The position numbers and the translations under genes are program-made. From the NCBI GenBank assembly GCA_963804385.1, contig CAWDQD010000036.1:13250-77249 (forward strand): a stretch of DNA of 64,000 bases, read 5' to 3'. Below are positions 23,101-42,712 of this stretch, in pieces. Below the pieces are notes generated by a model that did not search any database, was not told where the DNA came from, and worked only from the letters and a program-made list of their open reading frames with translations. This DNA is from an uncultured Candidatus Micrarchaeota archaeon (GTDB taxonomy: Archaea; Micrarchaeota; Micrarchaeia; Anstonellales; Bilamarchaeaceae). How positions within the stretch are numbered: the stretch's first letter is position 1; every line of letters starts with the position of its first letter.

Positions 23101-23418
23101 TCAGAGCCTCTTCGCGAGCATCTTGAAATGCTCCCGCGCGGCAGAGAGGGACTCCTTGCCTTTCGCGCTCAGGGTGTAGTATTTCCTCCGCTCATGGGTC
23201 TCGGAACTGATGAGGCCTTCGTTCTCCAGGCGGTATAGCACTATGTACACCATGATCTTGTCGGGCTTGAACGAGAACCGCTTCTCTATCTGCTCGTCCA
23301 GATTGTAGGCGTACAGCTTCCCTTCGCTGTTGATGAGCGAGAGGAGATAGAGCCAGAGGTTGCCCGAGGTGAGAAGGCGCTTGAGGCGCTTGATCGGCGT
23401 CGGTGTTTCCATAACCAT
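23101..23418 (-). CDS. PadR-family transcriptional regulator
   Basis: A 105-aa winged-helix protein: LWLYLLSLINSEGKLYAYNLDEQIEKRF...VLYRLENEGLISSE. Its start overlaps the stop of the upstream 1266-aa gene by 1 nt. Confidence 0.75.
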   Translation of the reverse strand: MVMETPTPIKRLKRLLTSGNLWLYLLSLINSEGKLYAYNLDEQIEKRFSFKPDKIMVYIVLYRLENEGLISSETHERRKYYTLSAKGKESLSAAREHFKMLAKRL

Positions 23419-26400
23419 CAGGATTTCTCGGACTTGTCGGGTTTCTCGAAGGCCTTCCTGGCGAACCGCTGCTCCGGTGATCCGCTGTTCTCCTTCTTTA
23501 CGGCGGCCTCGACTATTTTTGCGGCCTGTTCTTCCATCTGACCGACTTTCGCATTCATGTCATTCAAATTATCCTCAGCACGTATTGCTATGTCAACACC
23601 AGAAGGAATGACCCCCTTCTTAGGATCGAAATCATTGAAGTATATAGACGACTTATATGCCTCCCTCCCCAGGGTCTCACCGGAGCTAGATCGCAGCATC
23701 TCATCCAGCTTAGCGGTTGCGGCTTGCTCAGCAGCCTTCTGCTGTTCTAGCGTCGGAGGCCCGACAGGGACTGCGGCCCGGATCACTTTCTCCCTCTCGG
23801 CGTCTGCGGCCCGTTCGGCAGCTTTCCTCTCATCTAAAGTGGGGTTGAATTTCCCGGCTACCTGCTCAGCTGCTAGGACCGAAGGCGCCTCCCCTAGATA
23901 ATTCCACGTGGAAGCGGCCTTATTATCTCCGACTGCCCTGCATATGCCTTCATTTGCATGCGCGATTTTGGCAGCTGCGACGAAATCCGGTTTTTCGGGA
24001 TTGAGCGCTTCCCTGTACTCGGCCGCGTTATCATCCATCCTCTTGGTGAACGATTCTCTCAGGTTCGCGTCTCTTATATGGGGTGTCCCATCCTGATCGG
24101 TATACGCCGCGCTCTTGAGCAAGGTGATGTTCAAGTCTGCGAGCTGGGCTCTCTGGTTGTCGGCCGAATTCAGATAGTTCGTCGCCGCCTTGGGGATTCC
24201 CGGCACCGCCTCAGCTAAACCGGTCCGCATGTAATCATTCTGCCTGTCCGCGATGATCTGGAGCCGCTCCGGAGCGCGGGTGAGGTCGCCTTTGGCAACC
24301 AATTGGCTGACTTGGTCGCTGGCTAGGATAGATGCCTCGAGCGTCTTCCTTTCGGCATTGGCTGCGGCCATGGCAGGCGGGACAGGGACTCCTGCGCGCT
24401 CGCACGCGGCTGTCGTGGACACATCGGTGTTCCGTATTGCGTTCAATTCTGCCACCGGAACCTGCGCGGCATTGCTTTTCGGAATCATTCCGAGGATATT
24501 CCCTGCTGAATTGGCTTCCACCTGCACACCGATATTGAATTCTTTGACCGCGGCCGGGCTCGTGAGCTTCGATGCGTCCGCCGGGCTTATCGTGCCGTTT
24601 TTCAATGCTTGATCAACGGCAGCTTGCATGAAGATCTTTGCTGTTTCTGGATTCGTCTTCTTCAGATCATCCACGCTTTGCCCAGAGTTCACCATCATGG
24701 TGACTGCAGCAGCAACAACCTCGCCTTGCGATTGCACCCCGAACTTGGCGGCAATCTCGGCCCCCATCTGCGAGTTCTTCTTAGGGTCCGAAAAAACGGA
24801 GGACTCCAAGGCCTGTTTTATATCGAAAAGAGCTTCTGTGTTGTTTTTGGCGAACGCCCGGCCTTTGGTTTCCTCTGGCGGCAGGGTATTGACTTCTGCC
24901 GGAGAATAGAATATGCCCCTGCTTGCCAATGCATCCGCAGCGATCTCCTGCTCGGCCTTTCTGACTGCTGGCAACGCTTCCGGGTGTTCACGCGCGAGCT
25001 CTCCCCATGCCTTCTTCTCAGCATCCTTCCAGTCATCCGCCTTGGCTGTCTGGACGGCTATGCTGTTCGTACGGAATGAATCGATGACCGAGGAAAGATC
25101 GTTGAATGCGGCCGCCTGGCCAGCCAACAGGTTGGCGGCATTCCCTTTATCTGCCAGGGTGGTCACTCCCATGGTCTTGAGGGCGACCCCTTCCGCGTAT
25201 CCTTTTACCATTGAAGCGTCGAATTTCTGCCCCGTGGGGTTTTCGATTGTGGATTCCTGCCCAGAGGGCCCCCTGCCCGGAACGATGTTCACTTTTATAT
25301 CTTCTTTGCTTCCCGCCACAGAGAATGCGGTCGCGATCGATGCTATCTTCAATTCCGGCTCCTGATTCACCATCTTGCCGTCCTTGGCTCCGAAGGTGTC
25401 GTATATGGCCGCGGGGTTATTCGAAGGCAGGCCTTTCGTTATCTCCACAGGCTGCCCAGCCACGGTAAGCACATTATTCTTCTCCACTAAGACGGGCACT
25501 TGCACGGGCTTGCCACCCACAGATTGCTCTATGTAAAATGAGACATTGCCTTTCGGGTCTGTCTTAGCCAAGACCTGGTACTCTTTGGCCTCGCTTGGCT
25601 GGAGGATCTTACCCGTGGCGTCCAGTTTTGCCGGGGTCACGATCTTTATCGTGACAGGATCGGCGCTATTCAGGACTGGTTTGCCCTTAGCATCGAGTTC
25701 CTGGGCTACTGTGACCGTGACTGTTTTTGGAGTGACCTTACCATCCATTATTGCAGCGCCGGCTTCAGGCAGCACGTTGTAGACCAAGGTGATATTACCG
25801 TTTGCATCAGGCTTGGAGCTCCCGGGCTGCAGGACACCATAGCTTCCGTTCGGGAGAGCGACCGAGAGGCCGCCCTGTTTATTGTACATGGCGATGACTG
25901 CCATGTCATTCTGGGCCCTGGCAGCTGCCTTGTCCTTATCATTCAGAAATCTGGTCATGAGTGCATTGCCGTTGCCTATGGTAGCGTAAGAATCCACTAT
26001 CCTTCCCAATGCGGATCCTGTGAACGCGAGAAGGCCGACCGCTTTCCAGTCGAGCTTGGCTCCGCTTCCGCCAACCCCTGCGCCTCCTTTCATCATATCG
26101 CTCAGCCGGAGACCCCCTCCGGCTCCGGTGAGGATCTGCTGGTTACCACGCGATACAAGAGTTCCGGCTGCCTGCGTAGTGCTCCTGCCCTGCGGATTCG
26201 CCAGCGTGTCGAGGGCTTTGCCGTACGACCCTTTCCCCCCACCTTTGCTGAGCGCCGTGGCCTGCGCATGCAACCCGAGCGCGGCGGATGACCGGGTACC
26301 GGAGATCAAAGGGCCGCCGAACGCCTTGAGCGGGCCGCCCATCTGCTTCGCTTCTGCTTTCATGGCATCGAGACGGCTCATCGGTTTGCCATTGGCATCC

Positions 26401-40898: not shown

Positions 40899-40951
40899 GA
40901 CAAGGCTTATCGATGAATAAGATTAATAAGGTGCTAAGCTGAGTTCTGGTG

Positions 40952-42712
40952 ATGCGCTTACTACATGTGCTCTGTCTCCTGCTGATATCATCGATAGCGT
41001 TCGCTTCTTCGATAGCGCCCGGATCATCCGCGCCATATTGCAACGGAAGCATCACGCAGTACGTGCCTGCGGTCGTAGGGACCGGAGGCGGTCTGGTAGG
41101 GGTGACATTGCAGCTCGTCCCATCGACGGAAGGGAACGGTACCATCTATGCCGGGGTCTATCCGACGCTCGGGACCGACACCCAGGACTCCATCGACCAG
41201 GCGGTCACATACGCATTCGCCGCGTCTAGCAAGGAGCTCTCATGCAACGCGCTCGTCTCCTTCAGTTCTGGGTATGGCACGGGCTACATAGACGGCCCGA
41301 GCGCCGGAGCCGCGTTCACGGTCATGACATACGCCCTGGTGAACAACCGGACGATGCGGAACGACACTATCATGACCGGGACTATAGAGGATGGGGGAGA
41401 TATCGGCGCGGTCGGGGGCCTCTACGAGAAAGCCGATAGCGCCGCCAAGGGCGGTGCGAAGTATTTCATCGCTCCGGTGGAAGGGATATACGAGATGCTG
41501 ATATTGCGGAACGTGGAGAAGATGGATGGCATAACGATCCTCCAGGCGCGCAATGTGAAAGATGCCATAGGTTTCATGCTGGACAACATATCGATAGACC
41601 AGGAGGGCATGCTACCCCAGAACCGGACCGCCCCGGATATACCGTCCTATGATTCCGGCGGGATCTCGTCGTTCATCCCGGTCGCCTCTGGCATGGTATC
41701 GCTCGAGAACGAGACCCTCGCCACCATAAGCGGCACCGACAACGATTCGAACGCGGTGCGCGATTTCTACTCCAGCGAGACGGAAAGGCAATCGAAGATC
41801 CTCAGGATGGGGTACCTCTTCACTGCGGCCAACGAGGCGTTCCTGAATTACATCGACCTCTCCACCATAAAGTCCATACTGGCCAATGACACGGACGTAT
41901 CGGCCAAGAGGGGCGATCTCGGCGTATGCCTCGGCTCCATAACCAGGCCTGCCTTGACCGACAATAATTTCCAGTGGGTGATCGGCGCGGACCTGCGCCA
42001 GGCATGGGCTTATGACAAGATGGCGGGGGACCAGAACGTGAGCGGCATGCTCGAAGACGAGCGGTACCTCGCGATAAACGACATGTCATACGGGATCGCG
42101 TGGTGCGATGTCGCGAAATCCATCCTGGCGGCTGCGCCCCAGGGCGGCACTCCGATAGATGAGAACGCGTGGAAGGCTCTCGCGACGCAGGAGATAGATG
42201 ACGCCAAGAACCTCCCGCTGCAGAAGCCCGACAGCATAGCGAGGCTGGGGATAGCCCAGAACTCGTACAACAACGGCAAATACGGGGCCGCGATATACGA
42301 CGCGGTGTACGCGATGAACAACGAGGAGACCCCGCCCACGGATCCGGAGACCGAGAAGGCCCAGGTCAGCGCGCTCCTCGGGGAGAACATCACTTCGCTC
42401 TGGGGGCAGATATACATGTCCCATGCCGCGTTCCTCTATCAGGACAACGACAGCGCATCGGCCTGGACCGTGGCGAGATTCGCCAAGGAGCTCGATGACG
42501 TGACGAAGCAGATGGAAAACAGCACGGCCACGCAGACTCCCGCGGCTGCGGTCCCGATCAGCCCCCCGGCGCAGGACTATCTCCTCCTGGCAGAGGGATT
42601 CGCGGCATTATCAATCTTTTTATTGGTTGTCGCTGTAATACTACTGATAAGGCGAGCGGATGGAAACGAACGAACTGGTAGGGATTATAGAGCTAAACAA
42701 AAAAAGGGCTGA
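40952..42712 (+). CDS. Secreted, C-terminally membrane-anchored Lon-like (S16) serine peptidase domain protein
   Basis: Signal peptide MRLLHVLCLLLISSIAFASS, followed by the Lon proteolytic core YIDGPSAGAAFTVMTYAL...MTGTIEDGGDIGAVGGLYEKADSAAKGGAKYFIAP (Ser-Lys dyad context). This is followed by a roughly 350-aa unknown domain and the C-terminal TM LLLAEGFAALSIFLLVVAVILLI. No AAA+ module is present. A TATA-like ATTAATAA lies 23 nt upstream. Confidence 0.7.
   Translation: MRLLHVLCLLLISSIAFASSIAPGSSAPYCNGSITQYVPAVVGTGGGLVGVTLQLVPSTEGNGTIYAGVYPTLGTDTQDSIDQAVTYAFAASSKELSCNALVSFSSGYGTGYIDGPSAGAAFTVMTYALVNNRTMRNDTIMTGTIEDGGDIGAVGGLYEKADSAAKGGAKYFIAPVEGIYEMLILRNVEKMDGITILQARNVKDAIGFMLDNISIDQEGMLPQNRTAPDIPSYDSGGISSFIPVASGMVSLENETLATISGTDNDSNAVRDFYSSETERQSKILRMGYLFTAANEAFLNYIDLSTIKSILANDTDVSAKRGDLGVCLGSITRPALTDNNFQWVIGADLRQAWAYDKMAGDQNVSGMLEDERYLAINDMSYGIAWCDVAKSILAAAPQGGTPIDENAWKALATQEIDDAKNLPLQKPDSIARLGIAQNSYNNGKYGAAIYDAVYAMNNEETPPTDPETEKAQVSALLGENITSLWGQIYMSHAAFLYQDNDSASAWTVARFAKELDDVTKQMENSTATQTPAAAVPISPPAQDYLLLAEGFAALSIFLLVVAVILLIRRADGNERTGRDYRAKQKKG

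Follow-up and report, generated by a model that had tools for sequence, protein, structure and literature searches.

A conserved cluster of six paralogous membrane proteins and a giant lipobox protein in Micrarchaeota as a candidate undescribed envelope complex

What might a very small archaeal genome build with a divergent locus that encodes only membrane, surface and small cytoplasmic proteins, and whose core has no described relatives? Archaea of the DPANN group are abundant; their genomes are very small, and for the most part they rely on other cells. How they build their envelopes and take up material is little understood. We analyzed such a locus in a stretch of 64,000 nt (hereafter, the window) from a metagenome-assembled genome (MAG) of an uncultured Micrarchaeota (DPANN) archaeon (assembly GCA_963804385.1, contig CAWDQD010000036.1, positions 13,250 to 77,249). 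One strand encodes six paralogous membrane proteins (MP1 to MP6), a 1433-aa lipobox protein (Giant), a 111-aa zinc-ribbon protein (ZnR) and, 3′ of the latter, a 188-aa open reading frame (ORF; orf188), while the other encodes a 1266-aa protein (Big) and a PadR regulator (Table 1). The cluster occupies ~16–19 kb of a genome of probably ~1 Mb, and because a streamlined genome spends so much on it, an important function is implied. Judged from sequence, the cluster appears categorically new and is conserved deeply within Micrarchaeota; its function we infer. The best explanation overall, which we hold tentatively, is that it encodes a real, lineage-specific and undescribed Micrarchaeota envelope complex that acts on glycans.

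The paralogy of the six MPs, proposed in an earlier note on this DNA, was borne out by BLASTP, with 15 of 15 pairs significant (4e-14 to 6e-4; 2e-11 to 6e-6 for MP2 against the others). In a joint alignment they share 20–24% identity and the family-invariant residues E67, R206, R212, G215, A220 and P230 (MP1 numbering). On this sequence evidence, MP1–6 are true, ancient paralogs, and a chance pattern is excluded. Hydropathy of the MPs gives this order of elements: a signal peptide, a first transmembrane (TM) helix, a short loop (P-x-L-E-x-W-A-K-x-E), TM2, a ~100-residue loop and TM3 in the first half, and a loop (R-x(2)-P-F-x-R-x(2)-G), TM4, a variable loop, the last TM helix and a conserved tail (LGGE...(I/L)S(R/K)(L/F)V) in the second. 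By the positive-inside rule, the two conserved charged loops and the tail are predicted to be cytoplasmic, and the family-invariant charged residues sit in these two loops. The large loops are predicted to be external because the insert of MP3 is rich in cysteines and sequons: of the 36 Cys and 13 sequons (N-x-S/T) in MP3, most fall inside the ~400-aa ectodomain insert. MP3 orthologs are 690–760 aa long in each locus examined. An AlphaFold2 (AF2) model of MP1 built from 84 sequences (predicted local distance difference test score, pLDDT, 87.9) is all-helical plus one β-hairpin, and three of its helices, at 45–51 residues, exceed the length of a membrane span. The architecture suggested by the model is that of a signal peptide followed by at least five TM helices, with long helices projecting out of the membrane.

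This membrane protein family is large and appears to be confined to one lineage. MP1 has 77 orthologs at 42–87% identity, and a search with the six-MP profile returned 139 proteins, whose functional annotations all read hypothetical protein, none of which carries a Pfam domain, and whose organism names are only Candidatus Micrarchaeota, Micrarchaeia, Bilamarchaeum (itself Micrarchaeia, order Anstonellales) or ‘ainarchaeum’ MAGs. An exhaustive search with a hidden Markov model (HMM) of the MPs found 2851 clusters (at 50% identity) at E≤1e-3 and 1963 at E≤1e-10; in cluster look-ups the named members were only ‘Micrarchaeota’ and the others nameless. A profile of the distant paralogs from one locus (L036, see below) had 7 matches only. 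Many members of the family measure 1000–1700 aa, either with the core split into two matched stretches or with 100–430 extra residues ahead of it, and the MP3-type ectodomain insert is therefore greatly expanded in some lineages. At ~2,850 clusters, the family merits its own family definition, even if the complex should be purely structural.

Searches for characterized relatives of the MPs were negative. Against Pfam and NCBIfam, MP1–6 had no match at E≤1 other than that of MP2 to WCOR413, which we rejected (22.8 bits, below the cut-off of 25) and took to reflect TM-helix composition. Pfam found 0 families in the 77 MP1 orthologs, the MP profile had no match among PDB sequences, and in Foldseek searches the MP1 model had no PDB match at E≤1e-3 and nothing significant in the viral BFVD. 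The earlier note had named a match of the MPs to a characterized family, by profile or structure, as the result that would argue against a new system; none was found for the MPs by Pfam, NCBIfam, PDB or Foldseek (MP1 model). Matches to transporter families (ABC-2, MMPL/RND, MFS and Wzx/Wzy) were likewise absent from Pfam and NCBIfam results, and chains of an ABC exporter and WzxE aligned to the MP1 model only at Foldseek E 0.3–0.9 and TM-scores of ~0.1–0.17. The best PDB matches of MP1, 9 of the top 11, were Tweety homologs (TTYH), which share an outline with MP1's predicted topology (an outside N-terminus, an inside C-terminus and, between them, ~5 TM helices that continue beyond the membrane as an extracellular helical bundle). 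However, these matches reach E 8e-3 at best, with TM-scores of 0.15–0.19, rmsd >17 Å (22 Å for the best match), ~14% identity and no sequence match, and TTYH proteins are eukaryotic homodimers, in contrast to the six-paralog operon here. Kinship of the MPs to TTYH is not significant, and we treat the resemblance as a topological look-alike only.

We compared gene order in loci obtained by look-ups of MP1 homologs (L001–L003), by a scan of GTDB species representatives (L004–L036; 33 loci, all in Micrarchaeota-type MAGs) and by look-ups of Giant homologs (L037–L039), together with two distant loci (L040 and L041). The mixed alignment of MP paralogs contained no conserved stretch usable for a genome scan, and the GTDB scan used one narrow peptide pattern from orthologs, its 33 species being a lower bound that is silent on absence elsewhere. 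Recurrence of the gene order in other archaeal genomes had been set beforehand as a test of the earlier proposal, and the 33 GTDB species representatives and further loci bore it out strongly. With tblastn, the window proteins were found in the same order in the scanned loci wherever the contig was long enough, with ScpB, AAA_18, PadR and Big on one strand and MP1 to MP6 and Giant on the other. Each window MP best-matched the corresponding position (37–66% identity in the 33 GTDB species representatives and other loci; 38–58% for positional orthologs of MP2 in at least 33 loci), and Giant was always 3′ of the six MPs in the loci examined. Since six orthologous groups keep a fixed order at 32–60% identity, the MPs are probably non-redundant subunits rather than independent duplicates.

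The distant loci delimit the core. L040 contains six MPs (positional orthologs at 42–54% identity) and a 1476-aa Giant, followed by Trm56, and PadR, Big, ZnR and orf188 were not found beside this core. The contig of L041 begins within MP3 and continues through MP6 (MP3 to MP6 at 32–39% identity) to a 1043-aa Giant, and in L036 PadR is directly divergent from MP1, with Big missing between them. Because the six MPs and Giant are kept where the neighborhood differs (L040, L041), we regard them as the invariant core; Big, PadR, ZnR and orf188 fall outside it, since each is missing beside the core in at least one lineage. PadR, ZnR and orf188 are frequent companions of the core. Some lineages carry further large genes nearby. 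In L041 (3893–11760), a Big homolog of 1579 aa after Giant is followed by two unannotated proteins (325 and 421 aa) without a match to the MP HMM or to any protein of the window, and in L040 (13547–19516) an unannotated 1989-aa protein follows Trm56; these extra proteins may be lineage-specific accessory components.

The other member of the core, Giant, carries the features of a surface lipoprotein. The earlier note's description of a lipobox-bearing protein with about 55 Cys was confirmed by the window sequence (55 Cys and FLSGC), with LSGC as the lipobox and Cys19 as its cysteine. Across 76 homologs the corresponding motif is AAGC, FGC or SGC and 99% have the Cys; the distant loci L040 and L041 likewise encode a signal peptide and lipobox. 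Lipobox lipoproteins are recognized by a signal peptide that closes with [LVI][ASTG][GA]C and whose Cys is invariant, and lipid modification of Giant is predicted on this basis. The family (79 homologs, 1000–1750 aa) is annotated as hypothetical protein, save for one ‘zinc-ribbon protein’, and its named members belong to the same lineage as those of the MPs. Approximately 45 Cys are kept in at least 95% of the sequences, and Giant has 22 sequons. The two DsbA-like genes that the earlier note reported are indeed in the window (10318–12220), and we count them as support for a disulfide-rich Giant. One MAG (locus tags L0Y65_00670, L0Y65_00700 and L0Y65_03445) has two Giant homologs, one six genes from an MP1 homolog and the other elsewhere. 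It may thus be that certain genomes contain the cluster twice or carry a Giant paralog on its own.

An AF2 model of Giant residues 20–1219 (pLDDT 81.5; predicted template-modeling score, pTM, 0.81) contains a split (β/α)8 barrel, in which β1-β2 (140–168) are separated from β3-β8 (955–1186) by ~770 residues of mostly β structure; a Cys-rich C-terminal domain follows at 1228–1433. Foldseek found 38 PDB matches to this model at E≤1e-3, all of them TIM barrels and mostly from glycoside hydrolase (GH) clan GH-A (GH2 β-glucuronidases, GH53 galactanases, GH10 xylanases, GH5/GH26 mannanases and GH1 β-glycosidases), the remainder being the barrel of dihydropyrimidine dehydrogenase. Alignments to clan GH-A have E 5e-5 to 1e-3 and probabilities of 0.96–1.00, those to GH2 enzymes span ~520–560 columns, and the predicted structure has the (β/α)8 fold of the clan. 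According to the model, then, clan GH-A glycosidases are the nearest structural relatives of the Giant barrel. The strand-end residues D147, R165, D959, Y1108, Y1186 and R1190 are invariant or nearly so, and D/E1023 is kept in 63 of 76 sequences; GH-A enzymes place their active site at these barrel strand ends. With strands assigned from the model, however, the β4 end reads V-[D/E] (D in 51/76, E in 12/76, G or A in some) rather than Asn-Glu, and the β7 end reads G-[F/L]-[N/S]-V, where an acidic residue is absent. Giant also differs from the clan in its split barrel, its lipobox anchor and its ~45 conserved Cys. Because the hallmark residues are absent, it is not classifiable as a GH-A enzyme, and the model instead suggests a conserved pocket on a glycosidase-like scaffold. 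The earlier statement that the large products belong to no named family holds for the MPs, but Giant is not featureless, given the GH-A-like TIM barrel of its model.

What the MPs do for Giant is the point at which an export function has to be weighed. The earlier note proposed a platform that anchors or exports Giant, and of this proposal a multi-subunit platform with a disulfide-rich surface protein is still the most economical part, whereas export and anchoring had been pure inference. In its strongest form, MP1–6 would be a dedicated translocon or insertase that exports, folds and anchors Giant as an adhesin or structural protein, with Giant as its sole client along with the Cys-rich loops of MP3 and Big. 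Such a function would fit the translational coupling of the MPs to Giant and the fact that they strictly occur together, as well as the size, disulfide richness and 22 sequons of Giant and the DsbA-like genes nearby. Against it, the locus has no energy source (ATPase), and in Pfam, NCBIfam and Foldseek searches the MPs bear no likeness to SecY, YidC, Tat or type IV secretion system (T4SS) components. The MPs merely exporting Giant is also less likely because Giant itself carries an ordinary Sec-type signal peptide and a conserved lipobox, and these would be enough for its export by Sec and its lipid anchoring. We consider this explanation somewhat unlikely. Giant resembles the known Micrarchaeota S-layer protein in being large, probably glycosylated and surface-exposed. 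That protein, SLP_Mh (Micr_00292; PF05123), has an S_layer_N domain, a mass of ~101 kDa and almost no sulfur-containing residues (bioRxiv 10.1101/2021.04.28.441871). With no PF05123/PF05124 match and 55 Cys, Giant is a different protein, and we rejected its identification as an S-layer protein.

Big, a bitopic protein, has a signal peptide, a Cys-rich ectodomain (~32–190; CxxC ... YYENxS..PSR ... YCPFC ... CGF..C), a TM helix (~200–222), a juxtamembrane motif (TGRNPFxGFNxGGxRxGRHIRYQARGRGF) and a cytoplasmic tail of ~1000 aa. Its role as a large cytoplasmic scaffold, suggested in the earlier note, is unlikely because this tail is variable in length (700–1300 residues among orthologs) and hardly alignable. 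The tail is of low complexity (16% Ala and 8% Gly in the window), and in an alignment of 19 orthologs conservation is limited to the first ~255 residues, with invariant columns confined to residues 33–250. The note's further suggestion, that Big shares an N-terminal module with the MPs, is contradicted by hhalign of Big 1–260 to the MP profile (probability 0.4%) and by BLASTP against the MPs and Giant (E>1), and we rejected homology of Big to either. Among PDB sequences, Big and its profile matched only designed helical proteins, on the tail and at E>0.02. Big is nonetheless linked to the core by its placement in L041, where a homolog (E 2e-23 to Big residues 63–265) lies directly 3′ of Giant with a 4-nt overlap rather than 5′ of MP1, so that the association occurs in two gene orders.

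We synthesize these observations in a working model of a glycan-acting envelope complex. MP1–6 would come together at a fixed ratio, the simplest case being a hetero-hexamer that contains each MP once, and would form a membrane base and a helical stalk outside. The lipid-anchored Giant and the Big ectodomain would dock on the outer face of this base, while Glu67, Arg206, Arg212 and the MP C-terminal tails would form an inner, cytoplasmic interface that may bind ZnR in this sub-clade. PadR would repress or tune the operon. A glycan role is favored because the barrel pocket suggests a carbohydrate-like ligand: speculatively, and as a weakly held part of the model, the pocket would bind or process extracellular or cell-surface glycans in a manner coupled to the MP base. 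The purpose could be to remodel the envelope, or to capture material from outside (host or environment) and take it up. If an envelope-spanning machine of this kind exists, the few known archaeal surface systems would gain a new type. Its parts list is now defined (six MPs, Giant and the Big ectodomain), and the predicted pocket-bearing TIM barrel offers specific residues to mutate.

Several findings weigh against this model. The glycan role is argued from fold likeness only, with target-normalized Foldseek TM-scores of 0.25–0.44 for Giant; neither Giant nor its 76-sequence profile matched a GH family in Pfam, NCBIfam or PDB sequences; and the canonical GH-A catalytic pair is absent (N-E is lacking at β4 and Glu at β7). 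The MPs show no signature of a transporter or channel. Nor need the role be dedicated to a host, since the metabolism of Anstonellales-type Micrarchaeota is comparatively complete (PMC8561730). For each of ZnR, orf188, PadR and Big there is at least one lineage that lacks it next to the core. The operon neighbors include plainly unrelated housekeeping genes (PadR-AAA_18-ScpB), and the whole ScpB-to-HerA neighborhood is syntenic in nearer relatives, which weakens synteny as functional evidence there because it may reflect slow rearrangement. These last points raise the question of whether the cluster is one system at all, or a set of independently acting membrane proteins and an unrelated surface enzyme whose neighborhood has persisted through slow rearrangement. 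The flanking genes ScpB, AAA_18, Lon_C, ELP3 and HerA are indeed syntenic too in closer relatives, and overlaps of start and stop codons are likewise seen between unrelated genes such as PadR-AAA_18-ScpB. Yet the block of six MPs and Giant persists despite different flanks (L040) and a relocated Big (L041), and the six distinct orthologous groups hold their order at 32–60% identity, leaving this explanation quite improbable in our view.

Contact with a host offers another possible role. The complex could be a symbiont–host contact and uptake apparatus that attaches to a host, opens its glycan coat and takes up lipids, sugars or other metabolites that such reduced archaea are unable to make. 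The family was seen only in a DPANN lineage, Giant would present a glycosidase-like barrel at the surface, the top (non-significant) Foldseek matches of MP1 are lipid-associated 5-TM TTYH proteins, and Micrarchaeota in culture rely on lipids and sugars from their host (PMC8975820). However, the TTYH match (TM-score 0.15, E 8e-3) is not evidence, the cluster occurs in the Anstonellales-type lineages with fuller metabolism (PMC8561730), and there is no link to an observed contact structure, the nanotubes seen by cryo-electron tomography in ARM-1 co-cultures having been described as structures built inside the host cell envelope (PMC11329633). We judge a host-contact function to be unlikely. More doubtful again is a conduit that combines these elements, in which MP1–6 would form a hetero-hexameric, envelope-spanning channel capped by Giant, which would open the glycan coat of a partner or degrade environmental glycans, with import of what the cell is unable to make (sugars, lipid-linked glycans or lipids). 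Were it true, the cluster would be a candidate for the long-sought DPANN uptake apparatus and a new class of archaeal cell-surface machine.

The arrangement of the MPs can be compared with systems built from tandem membrane-protein paralogs. In mycobacterial Mce systems, six paralogous subunits (MceA-F) encoded in tandem and co-transcribed form a heterohexamer with extended helices that spans the envelope. The analogy to MP1–6 lies in six ancient tandem paralogs in fixed order, but the MP locus has no MCE domain, YrbE permease or MceG ATPase, MceA-F are single-pass while the MPs are polytopic, and similarity of the MPs to Mce proteins was absent from Pfam, PDB sequence and Foldseek searches. 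TrbL/VirB6 proteins are, like the MPs, polytopic with large extra-membrane loops or extensions and can occur as tandem paralogs, as is reported for virB6 in Rickettsiales (PMC7648143). However, PF04610 was unmatched in the six MPs and the 77 MP1 orthologs, and no T4SS chain was among the Foldseek top 50. This resemblance is one of three observations that could point to an integrated mobile element, a conjugation-like (T4SS/VirB6-paralog) element or a defense island, the others being a tRNA-Ser gene 1.1 kb from PadR and a HerA/DUF87 ATPase 7 kb downstream. Such an origin is largely refuted and seems most improbable to us. The locus lacks an integrase, relaxase, VirB4 and VirD4, and neither these last two nor other T4SS genes were found between 22008 and 44960. 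PHROGs and PADLOC returned zinc-ribbon noise only, VirB6 structures were absent from the MP1 Foldseek matches, GC stays at 0.54–0.59 across the region with no compositional break, the DUF87/HerA gene (46945–48447) belongs to a conserved housekeeping flank, and the cluster keeps the same chromosomal position between housekeeping genes in dozens of species. A description of this cluster was not found in the literature searched, and among the ten locus proteins only PadR and the zinc ribbons matched Pfam or NCBIfam. As far as Pfam, NCBIfam, PHROGs, PADLOC, PDB and Foldseek reach, the cluster is unrelated to any described system, although a remote kinship of the MPs to a known membrane family is possible.

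Regulation of the cluster appears to center on the divergent control region and PadR. The ~120-bp region with TATA-like boxes facing both ways, as first described, was read here as 118 bp with two boxes: TTTATAAA at 27240–27247, ~27 nt upstream of the Big start, and TTTAATA at 27310–27316, ~24 nt upstream of the MP1 ATG. Because these boxes are only 24–27 nt from the start codons, divergent leaderless transcripts are suggested. The identity of PadR and its 1-nt overlap with Big were also upheld: PF03551 matched at 44.2 bits, above the cut-off of 27, over profile positions 1–74 of 75, which places the protein in the family. PadR lies beside the cluster in at least 25 loci. Control of the whole locus by PadR, an earlier suggestion, is plausible given L036, where PadR is divergent from MP1 without Big, but PadR is not beside the core in L040. 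The minus-strand operon also continues past PadR without a gap into the AAA_18 kinase and ScpB. Since PadR-AAA_18-ScpB is kept in at least 25 related genomes, PadR may equally regulate, or be co-expressed with, genes for chromosome segregation and ribosome maturation. Big, PadR, AAA_18 (adenylate-kinase/Fap7-like) and ScpB follow one another closely on the minus strand, the junctions being −1, 0 and −14 nt. AAA_18, ScpB and PadR occupy 22008–23418, and the string ends at tRNA-Ser(TGA), 21924–22007.

On the plus strand, eight ORFs from MP1 to ZnR had been described as one coupled operon, and their coordinates and junctions (−4, −4, −1, −1, +2, −1 and +2 nt, with ATGA or TGATG overlaps; 12,299 nt in all) were reproduced exactly from the ORF list. 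The eight coupled genes stand, but the proposed stop at ZnR does not: the start of orf188 follows closely, and an ortholog of 187–191 aa lies directly 3′ of ZnR in three genomes (L037–L039), making orf188 probably the ninth gene of the operon. Its product may be acetyltransferase-like, as a sub-threshold match to Acetyltransf_9 (E 0.025, profile positions 1–111 of 127) gives a weak likeness to the GNAT fold. ZnR, a triple zinc-ribbon protein as first described (Pfam DZR match, 12 Cys), has three zinc ribbons with six CxxC pairs and is cytoplasmic; it is 3′ of Giant in L037–L039 and was not found after Giant in L040 or L041. Downstream of Giant, the L037–L039 look-ups show ZnR, the 187–191-aa protein, Lon_C, ELP3 and HerA.

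Table 1 Positions of the cluster genes and associated features in the window.
Feature	Position	Strand	Description
MP1	27337-28581	+	414 aa; ORF; founding member of the six-paralog membrane family
MP2	28578-29585	+	335 aa; paralog; 4-nt overlap with MP1
MP3	29582-31774	+	730 aa; paralog; ectodomain insert of ~400 aa
MP4	31774-32841	+	355 aa; paralog; 1-nt overlap with MP3
MP5	32841-33944	+	367 aa; paralog; 1-nt overlap with MP4
MP6	33947-34996	+	349 aa; paralog; 2-nt gap after MP5
Giant	34996-39297	+	1433 aa; 55 Cys; N-terminal ...FLSGC
ZnR	39300-39635	+	111 aa; 12 Cys; Pfam DZR E 7e-11, also Zn_ribbon_3
orf188	39640-40206	+	Start 4 nt after ZnR; soluble protein
Lon_C protein	40949/40952-42712	+	587 aa; PF05362 E 5.5e-9
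Big	23418-27218	-	1266 aa; start 118 bp from MP1
PadR regulator	23101-23418	-	105 aa; winged-helix; PF03551 E 2e-11
Divergent control region	27219-27336	.	118 bp; two TATA-like boxes
DsbA-like genes	10318-11250 and 11348-12220		Two genes in the window

The Lon_C protein, whose PF05362 match agrees with the secreted Lon peptidase reported earlier, combines a signal peptide with a C-terminal TM helix, is without an ATPase domain, and retains GPSAG and GGLYEK, which are Ser and Lys motifs like those of Lon. Its synteny with the cluster is kept in L037–L039, where a conserved ~270-aa protein comes next, and it could be a protease of the envelope whose targets are the surface proteins of the cluster. 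In L037 (15722–19291), a 1189-aa NosD/β-helix repeat protein that is absent from the window lies between the gene 3′ of Lon_C and ELP3.

Archaeal housekeeping genes flank the cluster in the window (exosome Rrp4/41/42, PurA, ScpB, ELP3, LonB and HerA). A Fic/DOC-domain protein (45121–46086, plus strand) adjoins a HerA-like DUF87 ATPase of 500 aa and its 267-aa partner (46105–48447, minus strand), a pair that is kept 3′ of ELP3 in L038 and L039. GGDEF (diguanylate cyclase) domains are, to our knowledge, uncommon in archaea; a match to GGDEF (E 1e-13, covering only profile positions 5–85 of 161) was found in a 363-aa ORF (12291–13382, minus strand) adjoining the two DsbA-like genes. Rfam identified a 124-nt tRNA at 58801–58924 (plus strand, 53 bits) that ARAGORN did not call and that is probably an intron-containing archaeal tRNA.

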